DNA of 64,000 bases from Verrucomicrobiota bacterium (GTDB taxonomy: Bacteria > Verrucomicrobiota > Verrucomicrobiia > Chthoniobacterales > JACTMZ01). Positions 30,642 to 60,839 of the stretch are shown here, piece after piece; positions within the stretch are counted from its first letter, which is position 1, and the number at the start of each line of letters is the position of its first letter. The notes beneath the pieces are model-generated. The model ran no database searches. It was not told where the DNA came from and worked only from the letters and a program-made list of their open reading frames with translations. The stretch covers positions 90 to 64,089 of the forward strand of contig JACTMZ010000103.1 in the NCBI GenBank assembly GCA_014584375.1. The letters are read 5' to 3'. Both the position numbers and the translations under genes were made by a program.

Positions 30642-32267
30642 ATGAAAAGTTTTTTGCAGTTTCTGGTTTTCATCCTGGCGATCACGCTGGCTTTGGCCGG
30701 GTTGTATGCGTGGAAAAGCGGCTATTTCAACCGCGCCGCATCACCGCCTTCCCTGGAATCCCATGCCCCGCCGTCCGTGGCCAAGCCGGTGATCCCGCCG
30801 GGACGAATTCCGGGGCTTGCGGCTTTGGATGAGGAATTTGGACGCGTGGCTGGCGCGGTGGTTCCATCGGTCGTCAGCATCACTGCGCCGCGCGGGGACA
30901 GGATTGACCCGAGGGAGGAAATACTCCGCCAGTTTTTTGGCATGGGGCGTCCGCCGCAGCATGACGGGACAATGGCGCAGGGGTCGGGAGTGATTGTTTC
31001 GGAGCAGGGGCATATTGTGACCAATCTCCATGTGATTGAAGGTGCCTCGGAGGCGTCGGTGAGTCTTGCTGATGGACGTCGTTTTTCCGCAAAGCTGCTT
31101 GGAGCTGATCCCCGCACGGATTTGGCGATTTTGAAAATTGACGCAAACGGACTTCAACCGCTCGGATTTGCGGATTCGGAAAAGGTGCGTGTCGGGCAGC
31201 TTGTTTTCGCCGTGGGCAATCCCTTCGGCCTCCAGGAATCCGTCACCCAGGGCATTATTAGCGCACGCGAACGCCTTTTTTCCAGCGAGTCGGTGAATGA
31301 GTTTTTCCAGACGGATGCGCCGATCAACCCCGGGAATTCCGGTGGCCCCCTGGTCAACATCCGGGGGGAAATTGTGGGCATCAACAACTTCATTTTCTCG
31401 CAATCCGGCGGGAGCATGGGCATCGGCTTTGCAATTCCCGCCAACACCGTGCGCCGCGTGTTTGAACAAATTGTTCAGCATGGCCGCGTCCTGCGTCCGT
31501 ATTTCGGCGTTTTCTTGCAGCCGCTGACCGCAGAAACGGCGGTTCGGGTTGGGGCGGCCCCCGATGCGCGCGGTGCTTTGGTCGCGGGTGTCGAATCCGG
31601 TTCTCCGGCGGCAGCGGCGAATATTCAGCCGGGCGATGTTATTCAAAAATTTGACGGACGCGAAATTCGAGATTTCAACGATTTGCGCAAGCGGGTTGCG
31701 GAGGCGAGTCTGGGAACGGAGGTTCGCGTCTCGCTTTTGCGGGGCGGAAAAACCCTCGAAGTTCCCGTGCGGATCCGGGAAATGTCTGCGGATGGTGCAG
31801 CGTTTTCCGCGCCCGATCCCGGTGGAACGCCGAATAATCCCGCCGCGGGCAATGTGTTTGCCGGCGTGTCGGTGCGCGAGATCACTCCCGTCTTGGCTAC
31901 AAAATTTCGTCTGCCCTCAGCCATCGAGGGCGTGCTGATCCAAGCCGTGGAACCGGGGACATCCGCCGCCTCCGTCCTGCGCCCAGGTGACGTGATTGAG
32001 CAAATCAATGATACGCCGATTTCCTCGCCGGCGAATTTTTTGCAGACCGCCGCCGCGCTGCCTCCGGGCGAAAAAGCCGTCGTCCTGATCGCCCGCGGCC
32101 CCGTACGAACCTTCGAAGTCGTCGGCCCAAACACCGCAAAAGGGCACCGCATGGCCCCCGATGGCAAGGCGTCGCCGGTCATGATATCGCCGGAGTTTTC
32201 CCTATTTCCGCACGCCTTGTTTTTAGCTTGGCGAGGGGCTTGGTTTATCCTTGTCAGCTTCTTATAG
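30642..32267 (+). CDS. htrA: HtrA/DegP-family serine protease with two PDZ domains
   Basis: N-terminal TM helix. The catalytic triad contexts are TNLHV, DLAILKI and GNSGGPLVN, followed by two PDZ-like regions. The last ~45 aa look non-homologous and overlap the convergent methyltransferase gene. Confidence 0.9.
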   Translation: MKSFLQFLVFILAITLALAGLYAWKSGYFNRAASPPSLESHAPPSVAKPVIPPGRIPGLAALDEEFGRVAGAVVPSVVSITAPRGDRIDPREEILRQFFGMGRPPQHDGTMAQGSGVIVSEQGHIVTNLHVIEGASEASVSLADGRRFSAKLLGADPRTDLAILKIDANGLQPLGFADSEKVRVGQLVFAVGNPFGLQESVTQGIISARERLFSSESVNEFFQTDAPINPGNSGGPLVNIRGEIVGINNFIFSQSGGSMGIGFAIPANTVRRVFEQIVQHGRVLRPYFGVFLQPLTAETAVRVGAAPDARGALVAGVESGSPAAAANIQPGDVIQKFDGREIRDFNDLRKRVAEASLGTEVRVSLLRGGKTLEVPVRIREMSADGAAFSAPDPGGTPNNPAAGNVFAGVSVREITPVLATKFRLPSAIEGVLIQAVEPGTSAASVLRPGDVIEQINDTPISSPANFLQTAAALPPGEKAVVLIARGPVRTFEVVGPNTAKGHRMAPDGKASPVMISPEFSLFPHALFLAWRGAWFILVSFL

Positions 32268-35200
32268 GAGCGAGCTTGCCGGTGCGCAGCAGGGTGCGGA
32301 AGGTGTCCAGGGTTTCGGTCTTCATGGCTTCGTCCACGAGCGGGAAGGTGGCGAGGATGTGGGCGAATTCCTCCTCGGTCAGGTCGTAGAGCCGGGCGAC
32401 GAGGGCATCGAGTTCGGCGCGCAGGCGGCGGCGGGCGGCCTCGTCCCGAACGCCGTGGGTTTTGTGGGTGGCCTTCGGGCCGAAAATTTCCCGCAGCAGG
32501 TCGTCAAACTCCGCGCTCGTCCCCACCAGCCGCGCCGCACGCTCGACCAGCGGACGAAACGCCGCGTCGGCGGCGGTCAGGCGCGGGATGGGGAGCTGGT
32601 ATACCATAAACATGGAGATACTTGTCGTGACTCGTTTTCTAATGCACCAATCCACCGTAAAACTGTTCATCACCGCGCATAAGAACAAAGGTTCTGCCGC
32701 ACACGAAAAGCAATGCAGGTCGGACAGCATGAGTTTGTGGTTTGCAAACACGTTTCTCGGTAGGATCGTGGCAAGCATCGTTCGTTCATTCGTGTTGCTC
32801 GCGATTTCTCTGAATGCGAACCGATAGCGTGTCGAATGAAGTCGCTTGTCTTCAGATGTTGTCAGACCAAGGCGAGCATATCCATCATCCGAGGACACCC
32901 AATACTTGGCATTAGCGAAATCAGAACAGAACTGATGAATCATCTTTCCCTCGAATAACCTGAATGCACTTCGTTCCGAACTAGCTAAGAAAAGATCGCT
33001 GTCATTAGTCATATGCAGCTCATTCGTGAGCTTGAGTTTCCAGCGGCCATCGACGGTTCTTCCAAGCAGGGGATTCCGAAGTAGTTTGTCGAATATCTCT
33101 ATGTCAGCTTGGGAGTGAAATTCGAGAAGAGAAAGCGAGTCTGGTGATAGTTTCTCGATCAGGGCGCGGGAGAGGCGCAGCGGGGCGGCTTCCGGAAAGC
33201 TGGCGAGTTCCGGCGGGTCGTGCCGCATGAAGGCGACGGGAAACTCGGAGGTGACGCCGCCTTTTTCGAAGGAAAGGACGACGAATTTGAAACGCGAGTC
33301 CACGCCTTCGAAGATGGCTTTGCGATTTTCGAACCCGAAGAGTCCGGTGAGGCGGGTGCGGTCGAAGAGCATGAGCCGGAGCTGCTTGGTGCCGAGGTCG
33401 GTGTAGATGCCGCTGGGGATGACGATGCCGCAGCGTCCGCCCGCGCCGAGGAGGTTGACGCATTGTTCGGTGAAGAGCTTGTAGAGGTTGATGTCGCTGC
33501 CGGCCTTGCGCCCGTTTACGATGCTGATCTGATTCTCGAACTGCGGGGCGGCGCGGAACCATTCGCTGACATGCGGGAAGCCGGAGAGGTAGCCGAGCCA
33601 GGCCGTGTGGATTTCCGGGTCGCAGAGGAGGCTGGCTTTCTCGTCCTCGAAGTCCTCGATGCGCATGGTGTTCTTGGTGACCAGCTCGCTGTGCTGCTGG
33701 AAGAACTCCTTGCTGTTCGGCTTGAAGATTTCCCACGGCGGATTGGTGATGATGGCGTCGAAGCCGCCGCGGGTGATGAGGATGTCGTCGAATTCGTAGG
33801 CCCAGTGGAAGGGGTGGAGGGCGCGGATGTCGTCGAGGGTGAGGGCGCGCTTCTCGGGTTTGCCTTCCTTTTTTTTTGCGGCATCCCAAGTGGCTTGTTG
33901 AAACTTGATGCCGAGGCGGTGGAATTCATCGAGCAGGAGCTTGTCGAGCACGAGGCGGGCGGCGGCTTTTTGCTCCTCGATGCTGCGGCGGAGGGTGACG
34001 AGGGCGTCGCTCTCCTTTGCGCCGCTGCCGATGAGGCTGGGAGCCTCCTTGTAGAGGGTGATGAGGCGGTTTTTCACGGCGAGGAGTTCGGCGTATTTCG
34101 CGGCGCGGACGGTGGCGAGGTGGGCAGCGATGGTTTCGGCACGCTTCGGAGCGGTGGTGGACTCGATGGTGAAGCCGAGATCGCCCTCCGTGGGCTCGTG
34201 GACAAGGGTGAGGCGCTGTTGTTGGCGTCCGGATTTCGGATTGGATGCGTCAAAGGCGGTGGCATCCACGTGGAGGAGGCCGATGAGGGAATTGCCGGAG
34301 AGGATGTTGAACTCGATGTTCGGGAGGGGTTCGAGCTGGTCGCGGTGCTCGGCGGAGGCGACGAGGGAGAGGAAGAGGCGGAGTTTGGCGATCTCGGTGG
34401 CTTCCTCCATGAGGTCCACGCCGAAAAGGTTTTCGGTGACGATTTTCTTTTTCAGCCAGTAAGCGAGCGGGGCCTTGTGGGCTTTTTTCTCGCGCTGGAT
34501 CCAGTCGAGCACGGGCTTATGGGCGAGGGCTTCGCAGCGGCCGAGCAGGGCGGTGTAGAGATTGAGCAGGGTTTTCTGCGCGGCAACAAGGAAGGCACCG
34601 GAGCCGCAGGCGGGATCGAGCAGGGAGAGGCTCGGGAGGATGTCGTGGAGGAGGCGGGCGCAGAGCGGGCCGTCGGCGTGGAAGAGGAGGTCGTCGAGGC
34701 CGGTGAAGAGGCGGGGCGCGGGGAAGGATTTGGGATTCTGCCGGTGGAGTTTCTCTGCGGCGGCGTGGCCGGCATTGGCGCGGTCGAGCACGAGCTGGTG
34801 GATGGTCTGCTCACAGAGGTATTCGGTGATTTCGGGCCGGGTGTAGTAGGCGCCGAATTCCTTCTGGTTGATGTATTTTTCGAAGATGTAGCCGAGCACG
34901 TCGGGATTGATCTCGCGGTCATCGCCGCCGGGGGTGTCATTGAGGCTCCAGGTGTAGCGGCGGAAGAGGGTGAAGAGATCGGCAAAGGCGGCGTCGGGGA
35001 TTTCGATTTTCGCGTAGGCGGCGGTGAGGAGGCCATCGCCCTCGATGCGCTGCTCGATGCCGTGGGGCAGGAAGAGTCCGCCGTTGAGATACGGGATGTC
35101 GCCAAGCGGGACGGAGCCGACGGGCTGGCGCTTGGCGGCGGGCTTGGCGAAGCCTTCGAAGAAGAGGTCGCGCAGGGTGTGGGAGAAGAAGCGGTTTTCC

Positions 35201-35925
35201 CCGGACTTGCCGGAGGCTGCGAGCAGGGCGGGCAGGTAGTCGCGGTTGCCACCGTCGAGGAAGCCTTTTTCCTGCATGAACCAGACGAACATGAGGCGGT
35301 TGAGCAGGACGGAGGCATACCAGCGGCGCTCGCGGGGGTCGGGGATGCCGTGAATGAGGTCGAGCAGCTTGAGATGTTCGTTCTGAAAATCGCGGAAAAA
35401 CTGCTTGGTGACGGTCTCCACATCGAGGGCGCGCTGGACGCGAGTGGCGGTCTCGGTGAGCGAAAAGTGGCCGTCTTCGTCCAGCTCGGAAATGTCCACA
35501 AACAGGGCGGAGAGTTTGGAGAGAAACAGGTCGCCGGGCTGGCCACGCAGGTAGTGGTGGCGGCGGGGGATGCGCATTTTCCCGCCCTGCTCGCGGCGCA
35601 CCCAATACCAAAGGGAGCGGGTGCGCTGGGGATCGAGGAAGATGAGGATGTTTTCGTGACTGATGGCGGTGACCTGCTTCCATGCGGCGGCCTGCTGCGC
35701 GGCATCCGGGAGCTGGCCGTCGGCGGCCACCGCCTCAAACACCCGGCAGCCGGCAAGCTGGGCGATCTCGGTGAGGGTGAAGTCGGCGGACGGGTTGCCA
35801 GCGGTGAGGACGGCGGTTTTTTTCGACGCAGGCGGCTCCCAGCCGAGTTCTTCGATGAAGAGCTTGTGGAAGGCGAATGCTTGGAGGTGCTGGCGGGCAC
35901 GGGTGGTGTTGAGGCGGGTGGACAT
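32254..35925 (-). CDS. large gamma-class N6-adenine DNA methyltransferase with fused C-terminal TaqI_C-like target-recognition domain (Eco57I/type IIG-like, COG1002-type)
   Basis: 1223 aa. Motifs: GAYYTRPEI (aa ~358-366); motif I LLDPACGSGAF (DPACGSG = 34597-34617, verified by back-translation); CGNSL-like ILSGNSLIG; HPFHWAYEF...GGFDAIITNPPW with NPPW at 33733-33744 (verified). The helical region LLNRLMFVWFMQEKGFLD is typical of type IIG/ISP-like enzymes. C-terminal EGKMIHQF...RFAFREIASNTNERTMLATILP is the specificity-domain pattern. Confidence 0.9.
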   Translation of the reverse strand: MSTRLNTTRARQHLQAFAFHKLFIEELGWEPPASKKTAVLTAGNPSADFTLTEIAQLAGCRVFEAVAADGQLPDAAQQAAAWKQVTAISHENILIFLDPQRTRSLWYWVRREQGGKMRIPRRHHYLRGQPGDLFLSKLSALFVDISELDEDGHFSLTETATRVQRALDVETVTKQFFRDFQNEHLKLLDLIHGIPDPRERRWYASVLLNRLMFVWFMQEKGFLDGGNRDYLPALLAASGKSGENRFFSHTLRDLFFEGFAKPAAKRQPVGSVPLGDIPYLNGGLFLPHGIEQRIEGDGLLTAAYAKIEIPDAAFADLFTLFRRYTWSLNDTPGGDDREINPDVLGYIFEKYINQKEFGAYYTRPEITEYLCEQTIHQLVLDRANAGHAAAEKLHRQNPKSFPAPRLFTGLDDLLFHADGPLCARLLHDILPSLSLLDPACGSGAFLVAAQKTLLNLYTALLGRCEALAHKPVLDWIQREKKAHKAPLAYWLKKKIVTENLFGVDLMEEATEIAKLRLFLSLVASAEHRDQLEPLPNIEFNILSGNSLIGLLHVDATAFDASNPKSGRQQQRLTLVHEPTEGDLGFTIESTTAPKRAETIAAHLATVRAAKYAELLAVKNRLITLYKEAPSLIGSGAKESDALVTLRRSIEEQKAAARLVLDKLLLDEFHRLGIKFQQATWDAAKKKEGKPEKRALTLDDIRALHPFHWAYEFDDILITRGGFDAIITNPPWEIFKPNSKEFFQQHSELVTKNTMRIEDFEDEKASLLCDPEIHTAWLGYLSGFPHVSEWFRAAPQFENQISIVNGRKAGSDINLYKLFTEQCVNLLGAGGRCGIVIPSGIYTDLGTKQLRLMLFDRTRLTGLFGFENRKAIFEGVDSRFKFVVLSFEKGGVTSEFPVAFMRHDPPELASFPEAAPLRLSRALIEKLSPDSLSLLEFHSQADIEIFDKLLRNPLLGRTVDGRWKLKLTNELHMTNDSDLFLASSERSAFRLFEGKMIHQFCSDFANAKYWVSSDDGYARLGLTTSEDKRLHSTRYRFAFREIASNTNERTMLATILPRNVFANHKLMLSDLHCFSCAAEPLFLCAVMNSFTVDWCIRKRVTTSISMFMVYQLPIPRLTAADAAFRPLVERAARLVGTSAEFDDLLREIFGPKATHKTHGVRDEAARRRLRAELDALVARLYDLTEEEFAHILATFPLVDEAMKTETLDTFRTLLRTGKLAPIRS

Positions 35926-35930
35926 GAGGA

Positions 35931-35961
35931 AAGGGTGAAGGATGAATTATGAAGGGTGAAG
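35931..35961 (-). promoter_or_regulatory. two copies of a 10-nt direct repeat, 21 nt apart, in the 47-nt gap just upstream of the methyltransferase start
   Basis: The plus strand reads AAGGGTGAAG at 35931-35940 and again at 35952-35961 (CTTCACCCTT on the coding strand). The spacing is two helical turns. A regulatory role is speculative. Confidence 0.3.
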
Positions 35962-35972
35962 AGTGGCCGAGG

Positions 35973-37352
35973 TTAGACGCGGCCTTTGGGGGTGAGGCGG
36001 TATTTTTGCAGGCGGCTGTTGGGTTTATCGGGCCGTGTCGGCACGATGAGTCCGGCTTCCAAAGCCGGGAGCAAATAGGCTTTGCGGAAGTGTTCCCGAT
36101 CAGTCAGCCCGAGTTTATCCTGTAACTCCTGTCGGGTGTGTTCACCTGTGAAAGCACCCAAAAGCTGTTGGACTTGCGGGGTGACTTGCGGGGTAACTTG
36201 CGGGGTGACTGGTTCAGGCACTTTCACCGCCTTGAGGTATTCCGGCGCAAAGCGGAACTCGACGGTGAGGCCGGTGCCATCGAAGCTGAGCGCGGGTCTG
36301 GGGGTGCCAGCTTCCTTGCAGGCGGAAAAGATGCGTTCGATGCCACGGCCCCAGGTCTCGATCTCCCCGGAACGAAAGAAGACGTGAGCGATGGAGGGGT
36401 TGAACGGTGTCGAAGAGTGTGTCCCGAGAAGCGTTTTCACGGTCCAGCCATCTGGGAGGACGGCGGGATTCCAGATGCGGAGGCGGTCTTCATACACGCG
36501 GATCTGCACGGGCGCGCCGATGGCGTAGTCGCGATGGACGAGCGCATTGAGCACGGCCTCGCGCAGGGCGGCATCCGGCACGGGGTAGCGCTCGATGCGC
36601 TGGAGGCCCTGATAGGTGATGGCGGCTTTGAGATACTTGGTGCGGACAAGATCAATGGTCTTTGCGGCCTGAGTGAAGAGGTCGCCTTGGATCAGGTCAT
36701 GGTAGGCGAGGTCGGATTCGGAACGGAAGAAACCGATTTTTACGAAGGTTCCGGCGACGTAGCGCCCGGGATCTGCATGAAAAAGGAGCACGGCGGCGCG
36801 GCGGAGGTAAGTGCCCTCGGTGAGCTGGAGTCTTTCCACAAGGGAGATCTTCGATGAGCGCAGGTCCGCCGGATCGAGCCGTCCGCTGCTGCGGGCGAGA
36901 TTGCGAAACTGGCTGATGGCAGCGGTGGAGAGATCGGTAACTTTGACACCCGGCATGGGCACGGCATCCCAGGTGCGACCATGCTTGCGGAGGAGAAAGC
37001 GGTCCAGCGCGACCCCTTTCTGCTCCTGGAGCGTGCTGCCGCTGCGGGTGGAATAATGCCCGCGATAGCTGATGGGGTTTGGGTAGGGCGGGACGATGAT
37101 TTCGAGGAAGTCGCCGCCGTTTTCCTGACGGAGATTTACCTCGGCGACGATGCCGAGCACATCGCGGACTTTATTCGGCAGCTCTTCGAGAAGCTTGGCG
37201 GCATCCGGCAGACCGATGACGACGCCTTGATCATCCCTGCCGATGTGCAAGGCACCGCCCCCGGCATTGGCAAAGCCGCAGAGCCAGCGTAAATTCTCAT
37301 CCCGCCAGGTTTCCTTCCATTCAAGGTGCTGGTGTTCTTTCATGGGGAGCAT
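35973..37352 (-). CDS. AlbA_2 (Schlafen-like, formerly divergent AAA_4) + HATPase_c_4 (RecG-C-like) + C-terminal winged-helix protein
   Basis: N-terminal EHQHLEWKETW (the E..LEfK start of AlbA_2). Central REAVLNALVHRDYAIGAPVQIRVYEDRLRIWNPAVLP...TPFNPSIAHVFFRSGEIETWGRGIERI (HATPase_c_4 pattern). A (TPQV)3 linker, then ELQDKLGL.DREHFRKAYLLPALEAGLI...PDKPNSRLQKYRLTPKG (wHTH tail). An alternative start exists at 37343. Confidence 0.8.
   Translation of the reverse strand: MLPMKEHQHLEWKETWRDENLRWLCGFANAGGGALHIGRDDQGVVIGLPDAAKLLEELPNKVRDVLGIVAEVNLRQENGGDFLEIIVPPYPNPISYRGHYSTRSGSTLQEQKGVALDRFLLRKHGRTWDAVPMPGVKVTDLSTAAISQFRNLARSSGRLDPADLRSSKISLVERLQLTEGTYLRRAAVLLFHADPGRYVAGTFVKIGFFRSESDLAYHDLIQGDLFTQAAKTIDLVRTKYLKAAITYQGLQRIERYPVPDAALREAVLNALVHRDYAIGAPVQIRVYEDRLRIWNPAVLPDGWTVKTLLGTHSSTPFNPSIAHVFFRSGEIETWGRGIERIFSACKEAGTPRPALSFDGTGLTVEFRFAPEYLKAVKVPEPVTPQVTPQVTPQVQQLLGAFTGEHTRQELQDKLGLTDREHFRKAYLLPALEAGLIVPTRPDKPNSRLQKYRLTPKGRV
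36172..36211 (-). repeat. 12-bp tandem repeat, about 3.3 copies, encoding (TPQV)3
   Basis: The plus strand reads ACTTGCGGGGTG / ACTTGCGGGGTA / ACTTGCGGGGTG / ACTG. The reverse complement translates to PVTPQVTPQVTPQV, inside the AlbA_2-family gene. Confidence 0.9.
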
Positions 37353-37370
37353 CGGAGTGGATGGCGCGTT

Positions 37371-40300
37371 TCAAGGAATCATGATCCCGAGGGAGCAGAT
37401 GATGCGGGGTTCGCGGGCGTGGGCTTCCTCGATTGGGGTGCAGAGGCGGTCTTCCTCGTGGAGGGTGAGGACGAGTTCGGCGAGTTTTTCGTGGGAAACG
37501 TCGGCGCGCAGGTCACGGCTGAGCAGCTCGCGGGCGTGCTCACTAAGCGGGGCAGCGTAGATGGCATCGAGAGCCTGGTGGAGGGCTTTGATGTCGAAGA
37601 GCGTGCCTTGGACTGCGGCGGCGTGGTCTTTGAGCCGTTCATAGACGCGGCGGCGGGTGCTGCCGGGTTTTCCGAGCTGACCGCCGGTAGTGCTGTGTTC
37701 CTGCTGGATGCCGGTGACGGCCTGGCGGACGAGGTCGTGGTGATTGGCCAGGCGCGGCAGAGCGGGTGTGGAGGGCTCGCACTCGGCGGCGCGGAGGATT
37801 TCATGCTGGCTCTCGGTGACGGTGCGGCCCTGTTCGTCCACCCAGGCGAGGGCATCGTGGCCATCGGTCGTGCGGATATAGACCATGGCACCGGAAGCGG
37901 GCTGCACGCCGCCGGTGGCGGATGCCGGACGCGGCGGGACGGCGGAGAGTGCCTTGGTGCTAAAGACGACATTGGCGAGATTCGGGATCGTCTGGCGCAG
38001 GGCGGGATCGGCATCGCTGGCGTTTTTCCAAATCTGCCAGGCGAGCGAGGCAAGATCTACCTCGCCGTCCTCGGGGTCGTCGAGGGTGCCGCCTTTTTCG
38101 GTGAAGAGATCCTGGAGGAGGTGGTCGTGGCGCTCGTCCTCGAAGAAGGTTTCATCGGTGCCGACGACTTGCGCATTTTCATCAAGACGCTGGCGGATGC
38201 GCTCGCGCAGGCGAATGAGCCGATTGACGCCATCCGCCGGAAGGAAGGAATAGCATTGAATCTCCTCCGCCTTCTGCCCGATGCGGTCCACACGGCCCGC
38301 GCGCTGGATGAGGCGGATGATGGCCCAAGGCAGGTCGAAGTTCACCACCACGGCGGCGTCCTGGAGGTTCTGACCCTCGGAGAGCACGTCGGTGGCGATG
38401 AGGACGCGAAGTTCCTCGGTGGTGGAGACTTTGTCGCGCGCCTTGTTGCTCTCCGGGCTGAAGCGCCGCGTGAGGAGAGCAGGTTCCTCGGTGTTCCCGC
38501 AGACCGCGGCGAGACGGGTGACGCCGCGCGCCTTCAACTGCGCGGCAAGGTAATTTACCGTGTCGGAGAACTGCGAGAAAATGATCACCTTTTCATCGGT
38601 GTGGGTCTGGGTGAGCAGCTTGTGCAACTCGGCGAGCTTTTCGTCGCGCTCCGGCTCCCAGGCGCCGGACAGCTTGAGCGCGGAGAAGAGACGTTCGGCG
38701 TCCTGAAGTAGGTGTTCGCCAAGGCCGGGAACGAAGAGATCCGTCCGCAGCCAGTCAAAGTTTCGCACATGGGCATGACGCAGGAGGTCGTAGGCCTGCG
38801 CGGCGACGGCTCGGAAATCCTCCAGCGAGGTGGCCGTGATCTCCGTCAGTTCGGGCGGAACGTCCTCCGTCTCCTGGCCGAAGAGACTGCTCTCGCTGTC
38901 GGCGTCCTCATCGCGCGTGTCGAACAAGGCGGTGTCCTGCGTGCCAATGGGCAGCGGCAGGCCGTTTTCGATGGCGTGGAGGGCGATAAAGTTGCGCAGG
39001 ATGTGGCGGCGCAGCGAGAGGAGGAAGGAGTGGCCGCTGCTTTCGAGGCGTTTGAAGAGATTCGTGCGGCAAAAGCCAATGAGGCGCTTGCCGGCGCGGG
39101 AGAGATTGCGCATTACCTCCGCCTCATCCTGCGAGGGCGGCGTGTCGAGCGTGGGACGGATGTAGTTTGCCAGCCCGTAGCGCGGCAGGTGCAGGATGCG
39201 GATGGTGTCAACCACGGCGTCGGAGTAGAGCTTCGCAAACTGGTCGTTGGGACTTTTTTCGCGAATGCGAAACTCCAACTTCTTCGGTTTGCGTTTCGGG
39301 AAGTGGAAACGGGTGCCGTCCTCGAGCAGCAGGAAGCGGCGGGCTGTGCCATCCCTGGCCGTGCCGCATTTCGGGCAGGCCTCCTGCACGCCGGAGAGGA
39401 TACCGTCGCACTCCGGACACGGCGACCACGCGTAGTTGGCCTCCACAAAGCTGCGCGTGCGGCGCACCATGTAGAGGCGCATCATTTCCCGCCAGTCGTC
39501 GGCGTGGCCGCTTTTCTCAAACGCGGCGAGGCAGTTCACCGGGCACTGGTGGCGGCGGGTGAATTCGTCCACGCGGCTGTCGCAGTCGCGGCGTAGGTAT
39601 TCCTCCGGGCGAATCGGAAGGGTCGCATCGGCATCGAGAAAGAGGCGGAGCTGGCTGGCCAGATCGAGGTAGGACTTGTTGTAGGGCGTGGCGGACAGCA
39701 GGATGACCTTGCAGCCGTTGCGCGAGATGTAGTCGCGGATCGCCGACCACCGGCGGCCCGCACGGTTGCGTAGGTTGTGGCTTTCATCAATGATGACAAC
39801 GCGGTAGCGGCGCAGCTCGGGCAGGATATTTTGCACCTGGGTGGCGGAGACAACCTTCGCGATGAGCCGGTAGCGGTGCGCGTAGTCCTCCCACATGCCG
39901 CAGAGATTTTTCGGGCAGACAATGAGCGTCTCCAGCGAGCGCGGCGGATCCTGGAAAACCCGCGCCAACGCAGTCGCCATGAGCGTCTTGCCGAGACCAA
40001 CCACATCCCCCAGCACCACGCCGCCGCGCTTCTCCAGCTTGCCCGCGGCCATGCGCACGGCCGCAGCCTGGAAATCGAGGAGTGTGTTCCGCAGGTCGGC
40101 GGGAATCTGAAACTCGGAGAGCCCGGCGCGCGCCTCCTCGGCCAGGTGGTAGGCCATTTTGATGTAAATCCAGTAGGGCGGCAGTGTGTCCAGTCCGGCC
40201 CAGCTTTCCTCGATGACCTGGATCAACTCCTGCGTGATGTCCACACACCAGCGGTCGTTCCAGCGGTCCTCAAACCATTTCGCAAGCTTCTGTGTCGCGT

Positions 40301-40844
40301 CGTGATCGAGTACATCGACATTCAACTCGCCCTGATGCGAGAGGCCTGAGAGCGTGAGATTGCTGCTGCCGAGAAAGCCGGTGATCGGGTTGTTCGGGTC
40401 ATCGCGGAAACACAGGTAGAGCTTTGCGTGCAGCGTGTGACGGAGGAAAAGTTTCACAACCACCTTGCCCGCTTTGAGCTGGGCGGCCAAGCGGCGCAAT
40501 CCCTTTTCGTCGGCGTCTGTGGGAGTGCCCAGTGTGAGCTGCTCGCGGAATTCTTCCGCCAATTTGCGTTTCAGGCGGATGACGCGTTGATTGCTGATTT
40601 CTTCGTTGCCGGTCGAGAGGCTCAGCGCATCGCGTAATTCGTCCCGCTCCGATTTTTGCATCCCTACCAACAGGCGGCACTGATTTCCCTCACCGCCGGG
40701 CCATTGCTCAATTGCTGAATCAATCGCCTTCCATCCGCGCAAATTGAAATAGCCGACGCAGAAATCCGACCGATGCCCCAAAGTGAGTGTTTGCTCAAGG
40801 GCGGGGAGGAGATTCTGTTCGATGTTGTCGAAAATCCGGGGCAT
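37371..40844 (-). CDS. HKD (phospholipase-D superfamily) nuclease domain fused to an SNF2-family helicase/translocase
   Basis: 1157 aa.
- Single HKD motif [26 protein letters not shown]: HAK = 40422-40430 (verified), motif to 40359.
- SF2 motif [10 protein letters not shown] (39984-39998).
- Motif II DESH at 39777-39788 (verified).
- CPEC-x10-CPKC zinc-ribbon-like insert (39366-39419).
- Motifs IV-VI: [34 protein letters not shown].
- About 290 aa of C-terminal region with no motif I recognise. Confidence 0.9.
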
Positions 40845-40951
40845 CCGTAATCTTTGACTGCGTCAACATTGATTCTCAAGCCGACTTTCTGCGGGTGGAT
40901 TTGAAAATTCGCGTGCTTGCGGCGGCGGGGGAGCGGGGGCACAGTGCGGGG

Positions 40952-41743
40952 ATGCCGCTTCTTTCCGTTCGCAATCTCCGCACGTGTTTTCCCGTGTTTG
41001 GCGGCGTTTTTCGGCGGCCGGTCGGGGAAATCCGCGCAGTGGATGGAGTGAGTTTCGACATTGAGGCGGGGCGGACGGTCGGACTGGTTGGGGAAAGTGG
41101 CAGCGGAAAAACGACTGTGGGACGAACGATTCTCAAGCTGACCCCGTCCACCTCGGGAGAGGTTCTTTATGAGGGACGGAACATTCTGCCGCTGAGCGAA
41201 GGGGAGTTTCGTCCGCTGCGCAAGGAAATGCAGATGATTTTTCAGGATCCTTTCGGATCGCTGAATCCGAGAATGACTGTTTTTGCGATTCTTGCGGAGC
41301 CATTGGAAATTCATTTTCCGAAAATGACCCGGAACGAGCGTCGCGAGCGTGTTGCGGAACTGTTGCGGCTGGTCGGCCTCCCGGAGGATGCCATGGGACG
41401 GTATCCGCATGAATTTAGCGGAGGTCAGCGTCAACGCATTGGCATCGCCCGCGCCCTGGCTGTCAATCCGCGTTTCATCGTCTGCGATGAGCCGGTGAGC
41501 GCCCTGGATGTGAGTGTGCAGGCGCAGATTGTCAATCTGCTCCAGGATTTGCAGGAGCAGTTGGGCATCGCCTATTTGTTTATCGCGCATGATCTGGCCG
41601 TGGTGGAGCACGTGAGCGATCAGGTTGTGGTGATGCACCGGGGGCGGATTGTTGAATCGGCGCCGGCGGACGTTATTTACTCCGATCCGCAGCACGATTA
41701 TACGAAGAAGCTGCTGGCATCCGTTCCACGGCTTGCCGCCTGA
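40952..41743 (+). CDS. OppF/DppF-type ABC transporter ATP-binding protein; no cognate permease or binding-protein genes nearby
   Basis: Walker [10 protein letters not shown], signature [15 protein letters not shown], Walker [13 protein letters not shown], and the oligopeptide-type C-terminal tail ([15 protein letters not shown]). I moved the start to the ATG at 40952 (MPLLSVRNL...). Confidence 0.85.
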
Positions 41744-41753
41744 TTTGTCGCTC

Positions 41754-42923
41754 ATGATTTCCATCGCCCGAAAACTTCTTTCACTGCATTGGTTGCTGCT
41801 CGTCCTCGCCGTTTTGCTCGGAATTTTTGGCATTTACGCCATTTACAGCGCGACATGGATGCGCGAGCAGACGTTTTGGAATCGTCAGTTGGTGTGGCTG
41901 CTGGTGGGGTTTGTGCTGTTTTTGGGGGTGTCATTGACGGATTACCGTTGGATTCGCAAAGGGGCGCTGCCGCTCTACATCGCGGGTCTGGCTGGGCTGC
42001 TGGCCACGCATTTTTTTGGTCAGGAAGTTTATGGCGCCCGGAGTTGGCTGGATTTTGGCTTTTTTAATTTTCAGCCATCGCAGCTTGCCCTGATAGCCGC
42101 CGTGATGGTGATGGCCATTTTTTTGGCGGACTACGAAAACATGCCGCCGATTCTTCGCATTGCGCTTTGCGGCGTGATCGTGGCGGCTCCCTGGTTGCTT
42201 GTGCTCATACAGCCCGACCTGGGTTCCGCCATTGTGTGGATGCCCGTCGTGATGGCGATGCTTTACGCCGCACGTGTTCCCGGACGCTATTTGATCACCC
42301 TGTTGCTTTTGGCTGTGGCCGTTGTTCCGCTGATGGTCAATTTCGGGCTCAAACCCTACCAGCGTCTGCGCATTGTCACCTTTTTGGATCCCGATCTGGA
42401 TCCGCGCGGCGCGGGATGGACGATCAACCAATCATTGACCGCCATCGGCTCCGGTGGATGGGACGGGAAGGGGTTTAAGGCGCCGAACACCCTCAATGAG
42501 CTGGGTTTTTTGCCGAGCACGATTGTTCACAACGATTTTATTTTTTCGGTGATTGGCGAGCAGCACGGTTTTGTGGGGGGATCGTTGTTGTTGCTGGGCT
42601 ATCTGCTTTTGATTGCCGTCGGACTTTATATTGCGTTGAAGGCGGGGGATGATCTGGGCCGCTTGCTGGCCGTGGGATTGACGACCCTTTTATTCACGCA
42701 TGTCTTTATGAACATCGGCATGACAATCGGTGTCACTCCGATCACCGGACTGCCGCTGCCGCTGGTCAGCTATGGCGGATCCTTTTTATTGACGGTGCTT
42801 TTCAGTCTCGGTGTGTTGCAAAGCATTTGGATCCATCGTGGGACGGTGTCGGTGTCGCAGCGTTTGGAAAAAATAAAGCCGGCGCGTGGGGCGATATTTC
42901 CCGGCGCGACGGGCTTGCGTTGA
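41754..42923 (+). CDS. SEDS-family peptidoglycan glycosyltransferase (RodA/FtsW)
   Basis: 389 aa with about 10 TM helices and SEDS motifs (QPSQLA, DLGSAIV, GWTINQSLTAIGSGGWDGKG, DFIFSVIGEQHGF, TGLPLPLVSYGGS). The ATG at 41754 is 10 nt after the ATPase stop. Confidence 0.85.
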   Translation: MISIARKLLSLHWLLLVLAVLLGIFGIYAIYSATWMREQTFWNRQLVWLLVGFVLFLGVSLTDYRWIRKGALPLYIAGLAGLLATHFFGQEVYGARSWLDFGFFNFQPSQLALIAAVMVMAIFLADYENMPPILRIALCGVIVAAPWLLVLIQPDLGSAIVWMPVVMAMLYAARVPGRYLITLLLLAVAVVPLMVNFGLKPYQRLRIVTFLDPDLDPRGAGWTINQSLTAIGSGGWDGKGFKAPNTLNELGFLPSTIVHNDFIFSVIGEQHGFVGGSLLLLGYLLLIAVGLYIALKAGDDLGRLLAVGLTTLLFTHVFMNIGMTIGVTPITGLPLPLVSYGGSFLLTVLFSLGVLQSIWIHRGTVSVSQRLEKIKPARGAIFPGATGLR

Positions 42924-57814: not shown

Positions 57815-58488
57815 TTGCGGTGCCTGATGTTGCTGGGCCGTTGGCGGCTTTGTTGGCGGGACTTGTCACCAGCCTGCACTGTGCGGGCATGTGCGGCCCG
57901 CTTGCGTGTTCCGTTTGCACCCGGCGGGAGGGCGGGGGAAGCCTGGCGGCGGCGTGTGTTTATCACGGATCAAGAATGTTCTCCTATGCTTTGGTCGGCA
58001 TGGCGGCCGGATTGGCCGGACGGCGTTTGGCTGATGCACTAAGCGGCGGGGCGACGCGCTGGATGACGTGGGTGTTCATTGCCTTTTTTCTCGCGGTGGC
58101 TCTTGGTTTGGACAGGCGTTTGCGCGTGCCGATGCCTGCGGGTGTCCGTGTGTGGCTCGGGCAACGGGCGGCGGGAAAGAGCGTGTTTGGACGCGCGGGG
58201 TTTCTTGGTTTTTTCACGCCGCTTTTGCCATGTGCTCCGCTTTATCTCGTGGTGACGGCGGCAGCCTTGTCCGGTTCCGCCCTGGACGGCGCAGGCATCA
58301 TGCTGGCGTTTGCCCTGGGAACAATTCCGCTTTTGTTTTTATTGCAGTCGCAATTTTTTCGGTTCGGCGCGCTTTGGTCTCCGCGCGTCATGGATTATCT
58401 GCGACGCGGACTGGCTTTGGTCAGCGTTGCGCTTCTGCTTGTGCGGGGAACATACGGAGCGGCGACGGGATGTCCGATGTGCCATTGA
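57811..58488 (+). CDS. DsbD_2 / TauE-SafE-like membrane protein common in cco clusters
   Basis: 225 aa from the ATG at 57811 (MIAVPDVAG...). Contains the SLHCAGMCGPL motif and a later LLPCAPLY motif, with about 6 TM helices. The ORF-track start at 57589 lies inside ccoG. Confidence 0.6.
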   Translation: MIAVPDVAGPLAALLAGLVTSLHCAGMCGPLACSVCTRREGGGSLAAACVYHGSRMFSYALVGMAAGLAGRRLADALSGGATRWMTWVFIAFFLAVALGLDRRLRVPMPAGVRVWLGQRAAGKSVFGRAGFLGFFTPLLPCAPLYLVVTAAALSGSALDGAGIMLAFALGTIPLLFLLQSQFFRFGALWSPRVMDYLRRGLALVSVALLLVRGTYGAATGCPMCH

Positions 58489-60839
58489 TGACCGCTGTGC
58501 CCGAAATGCGCGCGCATGAATGTCGCCATTGTCGAACGCGATTTCGTCCGACGGATGGCGAGGCGGAGTTTTGTTGTTCGGGATGTCGTTTTGTTTTCGA
58601 TTTGTTGCACAAGCGCGGATTGAGCGACTTTTATCATTACGGTGAATCGCTTTCGCCGGCGGGCGGTTTTGTTTTTCACGAACGCGATTACGGCTGGCTG
58701 GCGGCGTTGCAGAAAGCGGCGGAGGTGGCGGAGGTGGCGGAGGTGGATGTCGAGGTGCAGGGGATTTCCTGCGCCGCCTGCGTCTGGCTTCTTGAGGCGG
58801 TTTTTATGGAAAAACCCGGAGCCGTGTCGTGCCGGATTGATTCTTCGGCGGGGGTGGTGCGTCTGCGCTGGCGGACGGGAGAGGCGGATTTGTGTGATTA
58901 CGCCCGTGATGTGCAGCGATTTGGCTACCTGCTGGGACCGCCGCGCGAACGCGGTATGTCCGCCCTGCGTCCCCTGACGCGCAAGCTTGGGCTGTGCGGA
59001 TTTTTCGCAATGAACGCAATGCTTTTTGCATCGCCCCGGTATTTTGGGATGGACCCGGGTGACGCGATGCAGGCGTTGTTTGACCTGATTTCGTTTGCTC
59101 TGGCCACGGCGAGCATTGTTGTCGGCGGCACTTATTTTTTTCGCCGCGCATTGACGGCGCTGCGTTACGGACAGCTTCACATTGACCTGCCGATTTCCCT
59201 CGGGCTTCTTCTTGGCTACGGAGGCTCCGTTGCGGCGTGGTTGGGGGATCAGCACAGCCTCAACTATTTTGATTTTGTTTCGGTTTTTTCCTTTCTCATG
59301 CTGCTTGGTCGTTGGCTGCAGGAGCGGGCGATGGAGGCGAATCGCCGGAGGCTGCTGGGATTGAGGATTTCGCCGGGGCGGGTTCGCCTGCTTGATGCGC
59401 CCGGAGGTGAAGCGGAGGCTTCCGCTTTGCGAAAGGGACGGCGGTATGAGGTTGCTCGAAACCGGGTGGTTCCCGTCCGCTCGCTTTTATTGCATCGCGG
59501 AGCGGCGTTCGCCCTCAATTGGATCAACGGCGAGCCGGCTCCGCGCATTTTTTCCGCCGGCGACATCGTGCCCTCGGGGGCGCGCAGCTTGGATGATGAG
59601 AGTCTGCAATTGCAGGCGCTTGAAGATTGGGAAACATCGCGCCTTCGCATTTTGCTGCACATTGATTCCGAGCGCGGATGGCGCAATCTCGGATTGGAAA
59701 AATTGATGAAAATTTATCTCGCAGCGGTGTTTGCCGTTGCGGCGGCGGGTTTTTTGGCATGGGGCGTGGGCATGAACAACTGGCTGCAGGCTTTTCAGGT
59801 AATGATTTCCGTGTTGGTTGTGTCCTGCCCCTGTTCCCTTGGTGTCGCCCTGCCGTTGCTTGACGACATGGCGTCCGTCGGCATGCAACAGCACGGCGTT
59901 TACATTCGCGAAGGCTCCCTGTGGGCGCGTTTAAAACACGTCAAAGTTTTGCTTTTTGACAAAACGGGCACTGTCACCCTTGAAACATTGCGTCCGTCAA
60001 ATCCGGAAGCGATTGACGCTCTTTCATCACACGAGCAGTCCGTCTTGCTGCGGATGGTCGGGCGCAGTCTGCATCCGGCGGCGGCGTGTTTGCGCGAGAT
60101 GTTGCTGTCGCGCGGTGTGGAGTCTGCACCAGGCGGCGCGGATGTTCGTGAGATTCCCGGCATGGGACTTGTGTGGGAAACAGAGGGGGGGGAATGGCGG
60201 CTGGGGCGGGCGTCGTGGGCCGTCTCCGGTGACACGGAGGGTGGAAGCATTTTTGCGTTCAACGGCATGATGCAGACGCGTTTTAATTTTCGCGAAGCAT
60301 TCCGTCCGGATGCGGCGCGCCAGGTTCAATTGTTTCAAACGGCGGGCTTGCCGGTGTACCTGCTCAGCGGTGACGATCCTCCGCGTGTGACGGCGGCGGG
60401 GCACACTCTCGGTCTTCCGGCCAATCACGCCCTTGGGGGACTTTCTCCGGATGACAAGGCTGCGTTGATTCGGCGGCGTTGGAAGGATTGTGCACTGATG
60501 CTTGGCGACGGGGCCAATGACAGTCTTGCTTTTGATGCCGTGCTTTGTCGGGGGACGCCTGCGGTGGATGCGGGCTTGTTGGAGCACAAGGCGGATTTCT
60601 ATATGCCGGGGAGCGGACTTGGGGGGCTTGGTGCGCTGTTTGCTTCAGCGCGATCCCGTCGTCGGGCGGCGCAGGCGGTCTTTGCATTTGCGCTGGCTTA
60701 CAACACGGCAGCGGTTTCCGTCGCGCTTGCCGGGTGGATGAATCCTCTGGTGGCCGCCGTGATCATGCCGGCGAGCTCTCTCATTTCCATCAGCTTGGCG
60801 CTTGCCGTTTTTCGAATTTCATCATCAACTAGACCTTAG
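58470..60839 (+). CDS. ccoI: P1B-type heavy-metal (copper) translocating ATPase, CcoI/FixI-like
   Basis: N-terminal Cys-rich CRHC...CCSGC domain, CPC motif VVSCPCSLG, phosphorylation site FDKTGTVT and hinge MLGDGANDS. I chose the start at the ATG at 58470 (an alternative is 58488). The ORF-track start at 58068 lies inside the previous gene. Confidence 0.9.
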   Translation: MSDVPLMTAVPEMRAHECRHCRTRFRPTDGEAEFCCSGCRFVFDLLHKRGLSDFYHYGESLSPAGGFVFHERDYGWLAALQKAAEVAEVAEVDVEVQGISCAACVWLLEAVFMEKPGAVSCRIDSSAGVVRLRWRTGEADLCDYARDVQRFGYLLGPPRERGMSALRPLTRKLGLCGFFAMNAMLFASPRYFGMDPGDAMQALFDLISFALATASIVVGGTYFFRRALTALRYGQLHIDLPISLGLLLGYGGSVAAWLGDQHSLNYFDFVSVFSFLMLLGRWLQERAMEANRRRLLGLRISPGRVRLLDAPGGEAEASALRKGRRYEVARNRVVPVRSLLLHRGAAFALNWINGEPAPRIFSAGDIVPSGARSLDDESLQLQALEDWETSRLRILLHIDSERGWRNLGLEKLMKIYLAAVFAVAAAGFLAWGVGMNNWLQAFQVMISVLVVSCPCSLGVALPLLDDMASVGMQQHGVYIREGSLWARLKHVKVLLFDKTGTVTLETLRPSNPEAIDALSSHEQSVLLRMVGRSLHPAAACLREMLLSRGVESAPGGADVREIPGMGLVWETEGGEWRLGRASWAVSGDTEGGSIFAFNGMMQTRFNFREAFRPDAARQVQLFQTAGLPVYLLSGDDPPRVTAAGHTLGLPANHALGGLSPDDKAALIRRRWKDCALMLGDGANDSLAFDAVLCRGTPAVDAGLLEHKADFYMPGSGLGGLGALFASARSRRRAAQAVFAFALAYNTAAVSVALAGWMNPLVAAVIMPASSLISISLALAVFRISSSTRP

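Follow-up and report, generated by a model that had tools for sequence, protein, structure and literature searches.

Proteins that join a Schlafen (SLFN) nuclease domain to an ATPase domain have been described from several bacterial contexts. The pairing of SLFN with PF13749, named 'Schlatpase', was counted in 60,692 proteins, mostly small and with either no further domain or a helix-turn-helix (HTH); a fusion with a prokaryotic Argonaute (pAgo) forms tetramers in response to ATP binding and cuts tRNA with its SLFN domain, and exchange of the Schlatpase module has linked pAgo, NACHT and type I restriction-modification loci (Kuzmenko et al. 2026, bioRxiv 10.64898/2026.05.29.728809). In a separate survey, proteins of the pSlfn-HisKinase-HTH type made up 19.2% of 5,930 pSlfns, and 69.6% of pSlfn genes had a defence gene no more than 10 kb away (Taboada et al., Nat Microbiol 2026, PMC13056530). 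A Schlafen protein with a minimal HisK domain and a winged HTH is embedded in BREX and BR loci of at least 1017 taxa, where it has been read as a back-up suicidal effector (NAR 2026, PMC12839542), and Schlafens with ATPase and DNA-binding domains were reported to be 'tightly associated' with BREX, restriction-modification and type I CRISPR systems (PMC13462974). Here we analyze a gene of this kind in a 64-kb stretch of DNA from a Verrucomicrobiota bacterium (contig JACTMZ010000103.1), the whole of which we call the window. The gene encodes a protein of 459 residues and is the middle cistron between a gene for an HKD nuclease fused to an SNF2 helicase (HKD-SNF2) and one for an Eco57I-type methylase; we refer to it as the middle gene. 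It is best described as a mobile accessory effector that has been repeatedly captured by restriction operons.

Architecture of the middle protein and its described relatives

The middle gene codes for a Schlafen (AlbA_2) domain, a GHKL ATPase domain, a repeat linker and a winged helix, and belongs to the class termed 'Schlatpase-HTH' or pSlfn-HisKinase-HTH. A first-pass annotation, made from the letters alone, had read the order AlbA_2, GHKL-like domain and winged HTH, and this architecture was recovered by Pfam, by an AlphaFold2 (AF2) model and by Foldseek. The Pfam match to SLFN_AlbA_2 is weak in sequence (31 bits against a cut-off of 25.3) and is backed by structure. Pfam also detected the HATPase_c_4 (PF13749) core at residues 279–366 (E = 2.9e-21) and the Fic-like_C winged helix at residues 392–454 (E = 1.5e-24). 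The AF2 model, a monomer calculated from an alignment of 94 homologues, has a mean predicted local distance difference test (pLDDT) score of 90.8 and a predicted template-modelling (pTM) score of 0.70, and its pLDDT falls below 50 only at residues 1–3 and 381–388, the latter lying in the linker, which is predicted to be disordered.

When the model was compared with the PDB using Foldseek, DIP2311 (3lmm) matched over the entire chain (E = 6e-25); the sequence and profile comparison with 3lmm also spans the GHKL region. The nuclease domains of SLFN12, SLFN11, SLFN14, SLFN13 and SLFN5, together with 2kyy, were matched with a probability of about 1.0, the GHKL part matched the CA domains of histidine kinases and BCKDK, and the C-terminus matched that of the Fic protein Dde_2494 (4rgl), with which it also has its C-terminal box in common. 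DIP2311 is the only solved full-length relative of the middle protein, and 4rgl carries a Fic domain where the middle protein has its Schlafen-GHKL body; both are structural-genomics entries without known function. NCBIfam holds no family for the middle protein, and PADLOC returned partial matches only, to pAgo-associated models, because the Schlatpase module is shared.

The residues expected of an active enzyme are retained throughout the family. The Schlafen domain carries E6-x4-E11-W-K, the 'SAFAN-like' FAN motif (residues 27–29) and D41; among 94 family members, E11 and F27-A28 are invariant, and E6, N29 and D41 are each conserved in at least 90%. In the ATPase domain, E265 and N269 of motif I, as well as G335-x-G337, are invariant in the same set. 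With the family profile, the FAN...G-x-D stretch can be aligned to SLFN12 and SLFN5, and a catalytic role for the acidic residues is assigned by analogy with E15/D20 of RorSlfn5 and D32 of RzAgo.

All four features of the published class are thus present, namely a Schlafen AlbA_2 (PF04326) fold, acidic residues with a SAFAN-like motif, a PF13749 GHKL domain and a C-terminal HTH. The middle protein has the same two-domain core as the Schlatpases, followed by the HTH; its E265 corresponds to the ATPase glutamate E314 of RzAgo, the acidic nuclease residues are conserved, and its domain composition is identical to that of the pSlfn-HisKinase-HTH proteins. As in the BREX and BR loci, a protein of this type is found here inside an operon of methylase and helicase-nuclease genes. 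Unlike the fused Schlatpases, the middle protein has no Argonaute sensor, and the published biochemistry (ATP-driven tetramers, tRNA cleavage, guide-RNA filaments) was obtained on a pAgo fusion of 1,100 residues and not on a 459-residue HTH form.

A functional parallel is offered by PrrC, a latent, NTPase-regulated tRNase encoded in the type Ic EcoprrI locus and released when a phage attacks the restriction enzyme (PMC1484252). PrrC and RloC are, like the middle protein, encoded inside a restriction-modification operon, but the folds are unrelated (an ABC-type NTPase with the PrrC nuclease, as opposed to GHKL with Schlafen); indeed, Pfam and NCBIfam detected no ABC-type NTPase or PrrC-type nuclease domain in the middle protein. 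PrrC has been proven to be silenced by the restriction enzyme; the same control is conceivable for the middle protein.

Occupancy of the slot between HKD-SNF2 and methylase genes

The first-pass annotation had proposed that the middle protein is a functional subunit of a restriction-like enzyme. A genome scan with the HKD-SNF2 protein recovered 53 loci, and both the helicase-nuclease and a methylase homologue were visible in 46 of them. In 32 of these 46 the methylase gene abuts or overlaps the stop codon of the HKD-SNF2 gene, and in the remaining 14 the two genes are separated by an insert of 0.3–1.5 kb; the Schlafen-GHKL gene does not occupy the slot in any of the 46. What the inserts carry instead is diverse: a YhcG/DUF1016 PD-(D/E)xK nuclease (L007, L048), Bro-N (five Bacteroidales loci), ORF6N (L038), a ParE toxin pair (L013), AbiEii (L047), DUF3800 (L050) and an IS200-like fragment (L024). 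Closest to the island described here is L007 (HKD-SNF2 84% identical, methylase 77%), and its YhcG gene sits exactly in the slot of the middle gene. Two more close HKD-SNF2 clusters (78% and 75% identity) abut their methylase, and one of these adjoins TrwC/TrwB conjugation genes on a conjugative element (L143). Taken together, the gene orders indicate that the canonical form of the HKD-SNF2/methylase system is a mobile two-gene unit whose junction is a hot-spot for cargo. This pair is highly conserved and has thousands of relatives, many of them 73–84% identical across phyla; we found no characterized example of the bare HKD-SNF2 and Eco57I-type methylase pair.

A natural knock-out of the middle gene was found in sister strains. 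The same island, at the same place, is present on 11 contigs from the DRR4384xx runs, where a single GAA to TAA change at codon 339 (E339*) splits the gene into ORFs (open reading frames) of 338 and 84 residues, so that everything from the last part of the GHKL domain onwards, linker and winged helix included, is cut off. On the contigs with E339* the HKD-SNF2 (1157 residues) and methylase (1223 residues) genes are full-length, and the middle gene is therefore dispensable for keeping both partners in that population. The two populations diverge by 0.4–1% overall (0.35–0.43% in the partner genes, approximately 1% in the flanks); within the middle gene they differ by nine synonymous changes, four missense changes and the stop, too few to judge relaxed selection.

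The functional-subunit proposal is thus unsupported, both because related pairs generally lack the gene and because E339* coexists with full-length partners. The alternative considered at the outset, that of a chance neighbour, is also wrong, since relatives of the middle gene recur beside type I and Eco57I-type restriction genes and one of them fills the same slot in an HKD-SNF2/methylase system only 25–31% identical to the one here.

The family to which the gene belongs is very large (more than 2,900 matches at E < 1e-10 among the scored candidates), and its members are named in their sources 'RecG', 'ATP-binding protein', 'Fic family protein', 'transcriptional regulator' or 'putative DNA binding domain-containing protein', so that the usual labels anticipated by the first-pass annotation ('ATP-binding protein', RecG-like) do occur. 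The closest full-length homologue (80% identity) adjoins dnaA, a methylase fragment, KilA-N and a Gabija-like OLD-TOPRIM/UvrD pair, with no HKD-SNF2 gene; a 76% relative is located among RhuM fragments, and one at 66% lies behind an AEP-TOTE helicase gene. In a further case, a relative of 70% identity is found in the same slot, between a PLD-SNF2 gene (1113 residues) and an Eco57I/TaqI_C methylase gene, and here the partners are only 25–31% (PLD-SNF2) and 25% (methylase) identical to those of the window. Since the middle genes are so much more alike than their partners, the gene has either moved between two distant systems or been captured independently by both. In a Fimbriiglobus locus (L019, 11666–13453), a more distant Schlafen-GHKL-DIP2311_C gene of 596 residues follows the methylase at a distance of 1.5 kb downstream, an independent pairing of the same protein class with the same type of system.

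Among 67 metagenomic loci, two (L089, L127) have the gene upstream of a close HKD-SNF2 relative, and about ten more have it beside distant HKD-SNF2 or methylase homologues. By Pfam, the nearest upstream neighbours in these loci are Methylase_S (8), HsdM (3), YhcG (3) and GmrSD (2), and the nearest downstream neighbours are ResIII (11), HSDR_N (10), Eco57I (7), TaqI_C (5) and YgjP (4). Most relatives sit in type I restriction loci. On the Synechococcus plasmid pIITB7_2 the order is hsdS-[gene]-hsdR-SprT with overlapping stop and start codons, and an annotated Deinococcus plasmid carries hsdM-hsdS-DUF262-RelE/HigA-[gene]; relatives are also found in front of an M14 peptidase gene. A scan of viral contigs gave no relatives of the middle gene.

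The repeat linker and exchange of the winged helix

Between the GHKL domain and the winged helix, the middle gene carries a 12-bp tandem repeat, present in 3.3 copies with 92% matches, which encodes VTPQVTPQVTPQV and forms a (VTPQ)3 linker. The unit and copy number are those given by the first-pass annotation; the coordinates it reported, 36172–36211, were off by one base. The self-match score at a lag of 12 is 20, compared to 8.1 +/- 1.1 (maximum 14) in 1000 codon shuffles, and no other period-12 tract in the window reaches such strength. Apart from this tract, the only coding-period repeat of such strength in a window-wide lag scan is a perfect 9-bp repeat, GCGGAGGTG x 3, at 58718–58746 (+), inside an ORF at 58068–60839 (+), which would read Ala-Glu-Val if in frame.

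A survey of homologues, as had been suggested for this tract, showed a peptide repeat of period four at the same position, from the end of the GHKL domain to the winged helix, in approximately 118 of 120 proteins, with the number of units varying between 1.5 and 7.5. The units are variants such as VTPE, VTPQ, VTDP, VTEQ and VAGQ, and SVKT, KWGE, LDEK or PESR units occur where the C-terminal HTH is of another type. The prediction that the linker is prone to slippage in frame was borne out at a homologous locus: three alleles (L063, L074 and L092), each from a different sample, show 100% identity over 1452 nt of the gene, the sole difference being that they have 3, 5 and 6 copies of the 12-bp unit, respectively. 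Unit numbers also differ within clusters of proteins sharing 90% identity (2/3/6, 2/3, 2/3/4 and 3/4/7). In the window's own population no copy-number variation was seen, the window allele and the E339* allele both having three units. As in simple-sequence contingency loci, copy number therefore differs among otherwise identical alleles; ON/OFF switching requires a unit not divisible by three, and with a unit of 12 bp all changes here are in frame.

The same tract marks the point at which related proteins cease to resemble each other. In the clusters above, proteins that are 90–100% identical over their first 360–390 residues fall to 10–50% identity after the repeat. At the DNA level, the loci L136 and L137 share approximately 99.6% identity over a stretch that begins upstream of the start codon and reaches the repeat; within the tract this identity breaks down, and it resumes at the P-x-K-P-N-S-R-L-Q-K-Y-R-L-T box and beyond. 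Mean pairwise column identity across the family follows the same pattern, with values of 0.68 for the Schlafen domain, 0.66 for the bridge, 0.68 for the GHKL domain, 0.37 for the repeat, 0.31 for the winged-helix helices and 0.62 for the wing box. On the evidence of these alignments, the tract is a hot-spot of in-frame length change and the 5' edge of a recombining hypervariable cassette. We note that the near-identical Schlafen-GHKL genes of L136 (2323–3972) and L137 (5635–8202), with their different winged-helix cassettes, differ as well in the cargo that comes next: AbiEi/AbiEii genes in one locus, and Bro-N, YhcG and RhuM genes in the other, the very families found as slot cargo in HKD-SNF2/methylase loci elsewhere.

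The module is not confined to Schlafens. The Fic protein 4rgl has the same kind of repeat followed by a Fic-like_C domain, including the peptide VGDQVTDQV, and many entries resembling C-terminal fragments of Fic proteins (P0343–P0462) carry the module with 1–5 xDQV units. A search seeded with the C-terminus of 4rgl gave only short entries (57–137 residues) consisting of Fic-like_C, a number of which start with a methionine just before the repeat, and such entries cannot tell whether stand-alone module genes exist. The repeat and winged helix thus form a portable module common to two unrelated toxin-type bodies, Schlafen-GHKL and Fic.

Both repeat-length change and helix exchange would presumably have functional consequences. 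The nearest described case is that of the HsdS proteins of EcoR124I and EcoR124II, which carry (TAEL)2 and (TAEL)3, respectively, an in-frame 12-bp switch in a restriction locus (review, PMC3874165). In both cases a 12-bp unit encodes a tetrapeptide, in a gene of a restriction locus, and an in-frame change alters the spacing between two functional modules. TAEL, however, forms a rigid helical coiled coil and alters the gap in the recognition site, whereas VTPQ contains proline, is predicted to be disordered and joins an enzyme body to a winged helix. We tentatively suggest, while regarding the idea as somewhat less than an even prospect, that the repeat may be the built-in joint of a diversity-generating module, in which slippage would retune the tether (from 1 to about 7 units) and recombination between the repeat (5') and the PDKPNSRLQKYRLT box (3') would swap the DNA-reading helices. 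The result would be a portable sensor or tether, open to rapid re-programming, that sets the trigger of restriction-embedded toxins, a protein-level analogue of HsdS domain shuffling and of the EcoR124 TAEL switch. In the searchable literature we found no description of this idea, and no paper with the repeat peptides TPEVTPEV, TPQVTPQV, TDPVTDPV, VTEQVTEQ or SVKTSVKT.

Host operon and interpretation

The first-pass annotation had placed the gene as a middle cistron between a nuclease-helicase and a methylase, and both neighbours were confirmed as same-strand HKD-SNF2 and Eco57I-type methylase genes (Table 1). The upstream protein has 'HKD+Snf2' C3a139 as its best PADLOC match (3e-46); its translation contains a single HKD motif (HAKLYL...GSSN) as well as GLGKT and DESH, and it is presumably the restriction subunit of the two-gene host system. 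The methylase matches REase_MTase_IIG (2e-102) in PADLOC, carries the motifs DPACGSGAF and NPPW, and is presumed to provide both modification and specificity. Sequence searches of the PDB returned nothing for the methylase and only generic SNF2/DEAD matches for the helicase. An independent gene call on an identical Logan contig gave the same three genes; it also shows opposite-strand housekeeping genes at either end (ABC_tran with FtsW, and HtrA with PGM), and the unit is therefore a compact three-gene island.

Table 1. Coordinates in the window of the middle gene, its parts and its operon neighbours
Feature	Residues	Position	Strand	Basis or remark
Downstream cistron, 1223-aa Eco57I/MmeI-type gamma-class N6-adenine methyltransferase		32254..35925	(-)	Pfam Eco57I, MmeI_Mtase, N6_Mtase
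Gap between middle gene and methylase, 47 nt, with pyrimidine-rich leader TTCACCCTTCATAATTCATCCTTCACCCTTTCC		35926..35972	(-)	Coordinates, Tandem Repeats Finder (TRF)
Middle gene, ATG start	1-459	35973..37352	(-)	ORF
Wing and C-terminal box P-D-K-P-N-S-R-L-Q-K-Y-R-L-T, 3' edge of swapped cassette		35976..36050	(-)	Column identity
Hypervariable winged-helix helices	395-434	36051..36170	(-)	Column identity, swapping between proteins
12-bp tandem repeat		36171..36210	(-)	TRF
GHKL (Bergerat-fold) ATPase domain	~256-368	36249..36587	(-)	Pfam, residue conservation, Foldseek
Codon E339 (GAA)	339	36336..36338	(-)	TAA in sister contigs (L001 and window aligned against L002, L003)
SLFN_AlbA_2 / Schlafen nuclease domain	6-108	37029..37337	(-)	Pfam, E = 3.9e-7
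Gap between HKD-SNF2 stop and middle-gene start, 18 nt		37353..37370	(-)	Gene coordinates
Upstream cistron, 1157-aa HKD (PLD-type) nuclease-SNF2 helicase		37371..40844	(-)	Pfam PLDc_2, SNF2-rel_dom, Helicase_C

The short same-strand gaps suggest that the three genes are co-transcribed. A scan for promoters and terminators between 32000 and 41200 gave no minus-strand match and, with counts at the level of shuffled sequence, was uninformative. The leader TTCACCCTTCATAATTCATCCTTCACCCTTTCC (35931–35961, minus strand; TRF period 7 x 4.4) lies upstream of the methylase start; a nearly identical leader precedes the methylase in the locus whose slot carries an ORF6N gene (L038), and it is missing where the HKD-SNF2 and methylase genes abut. 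Between 32000 and 41000, G+C is 0.62–0.64 over most of the island, approximately 0.59 at the 3' end of the methylase gene and approximately 0.57 in the flanks, values that are consistent with horizontal acquisition; despite this raised G+C, the island is at the same site in both strain populations.

Several other assignments were considered and rejected. An ORF of 389 residues at 40664–41833 (-) is not a fourth cistron: it has no Pfam or PADLOC match, overlaps the HKD-SNF2 start by 181 nt and is spurious, being antisense to a called ABC-transporter ATPase gene on the plus strand of the window (40787–41743). The Type-2 BR effector has an N-terminal HKD domain fused to an SNF2 helicase, and genes for DUF499 and DUF3780 are present in 98% of taxa (PMC12839542). 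The host matches its HKD-SNF2 and N6-methyltransferase components, but the DUF499 ATPase and DUF3780 genes are absent from the locus; the host is a bare two-gene unit and not a Type-2 BR system. DISARM was rejected in turn, the DrmA and DrmB genes being absent.

With moderate confidence, we favour the view that the middle protein is an accessory, co-transcribed, ATP-gated Schlafen RNase whose role is that of a second-line abortive effector; the winged helix, attached through its variable tether, would be the module that senses or tethers. This draws on the folds, the conserved catalytic-type residues, the optional presence of the gene and its recurrent linkage to restriction, the polymorphism of the repeat and the mosaicism of the cassette. 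A mobile Schlatpase-HTH cassette would have been captured in the inter-cistronic slot of an HKD-SNF2 and Eco57I-type methylase system. Co-transcription with the restriction and methylase genes, to which the gaps of 18 and 47 nt point, would ensure that the protein is present whenever the system is, and it would be kept in a latent state. The winged helix, on its flexible (VTPQ)n tether, could then be the variable module that decides when or where the nuclease fires; conceivable triggers are DNA ends or structures arising from restriction, the loss of restriction activity, or a phage factor that disables restriction. Once active, the nuclease would cut tRNA or other RNA and halt translation, providing a back-up abortive infection response analogous to that of PrrC with EcoprrI. 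As the sequence comparisons show, slippage in the 12-bp repeat alters the length of the tether in frame, and the repeat also acts as the 5' recombination joint for exchange of the winged-helix helices; both would be expected to affect function. By analogy with the pAgo fusion, ATP would drive oligomerization of the middle protein, and tRNA would be its substrate.

Several observations weigh against an abortive effector. No activity has been demonstrated for any stand-alone Schlatpase-HTH protein, and when pSlfn genes were challenged with a phage panel in E. coli, only the DUF262 and Ig-like fusions protected and the HisKinase-type genes did not (PMC13056530); these proven pSlfns have sensors other than that of the middle protein. 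The mapping of catalytic residues relies on weak profile matches to SLFN proteins (E between 0.008 and 0.9) together with similarity of fold. Neither contact nor signalling between the middle protein and its two neighbours is evident in the present data, E339* shows the gene to be dispensable in at least one population, and the winged helix could equally be a transcription-factor domain.

Among the alternatives, the one that fares best sees the gene as a selfish hitch-hiker: a toxin-like, autonomous cassette that settles in permissive, mobile and well-expressed operons, uncoupled from its neighbours and perhaps with no role in defence. Such a cassette would account for the ParE, AbiEii, YhcG, Bro-N and DUF3800 genes gathered in the same slot, for the many unrelated contexts of the gene, for its loss in sister strains and for the presence of the same repeat and winged-helix module on Fic toxins. 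We nevertheless consider it unlikely, although a serious contender, since published surveys report strong enrichment beside restriction, BREX and CRISPR genes, two distant HKD-SNF2 systems have the gene in the same slot, and the hypervariable, sensor-like tail fits arms-race selection.

It is improbable that the protein is instead a regulator, that is, a winged-helix transcription factor for the restriction operon or for itself, analogous to a controller protein, in which the Schlafen and GHKL domains would sense a ligand or nucleic acid and would not form a nuclease. The C-terminal winged helix, the regulator-like names of some relatives and the lack of phage protection by stand-alone HisKinase-type pSlfn genes all speak for this possibility. 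The invariant or nearly invariant nuclease acids and ATPase residues would, however, be needless in a pure regulator, the same gene precedes partners as unrelated as hsdR, an Eco57I-type methylase and an M14 peptidase, and the helices that read DNA show the lowest conservation of all and are exchanged between near-identical proteins, which would be unusual for a regulator with one operator. Restriction-modification controller (C) proteins themselves are single-domain HTH proteins of approximately 80–100 residues; the middle protein, with 459 residues, three domains and conserved enzyme residues, is not one of them.

That the gene encodes a core subunit, a required sensor, specificity or activation part of the HKD-SNF2/methylase enzyme, is very improbable. 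Its tightly spaced position as the middle cistron and the occupation of the same slot in a distantly related system would fit such a role; against it stand the absence of the gene from all 46 related pairs, of which 32 are directly abutting two-gene units, the unrelated cargo in the slot of 14 loci, the E339* allele, the dnaA-side, Gabija-like setting of the 80% homologue and the majority of relatives that sit in type I loci. We give least credence to a window copy that is decaying into a non-functional pseudogene, as the nonsense allele in the sister population might suggest, because that copy is full length and keeps all family-invariant residues, differences between the populations are nine synonymous against four missense plus the stop, and the AF2 model is confident.

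The architecture of the middle protein and its linkage to restriction and BREX were already published in 2026, and the sole element that appears to be undescribed is the repeat and the mosaic behaviour of the winged-helix module. The host, a bare HKD-SNF2 and Eco57I-type methylase pair, is widespread but uncharacterized. Genes of this class rank among the most frequent passengers of restriction, BREX and CRISPR loci that still lack an explanation, with tens of thousands of proteins in published counts, and there is no stand-alone member with a demonstrated trigger. The loci compared here provide a clean natural experiment: the same two-gene restriction unit can be seen carrying the gene, carrying a nonsense allele of it, lacking it altogether, or hosting other cargo in its slot. 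To judge from the variation of the repeat and the mosaic structure, diversifying pressure acts on the winged helix and its tether, and the question of what restriction-linked Schlafens sense is thereby narrowed to a module of 80 residues that can be swapped or extended experimentally.

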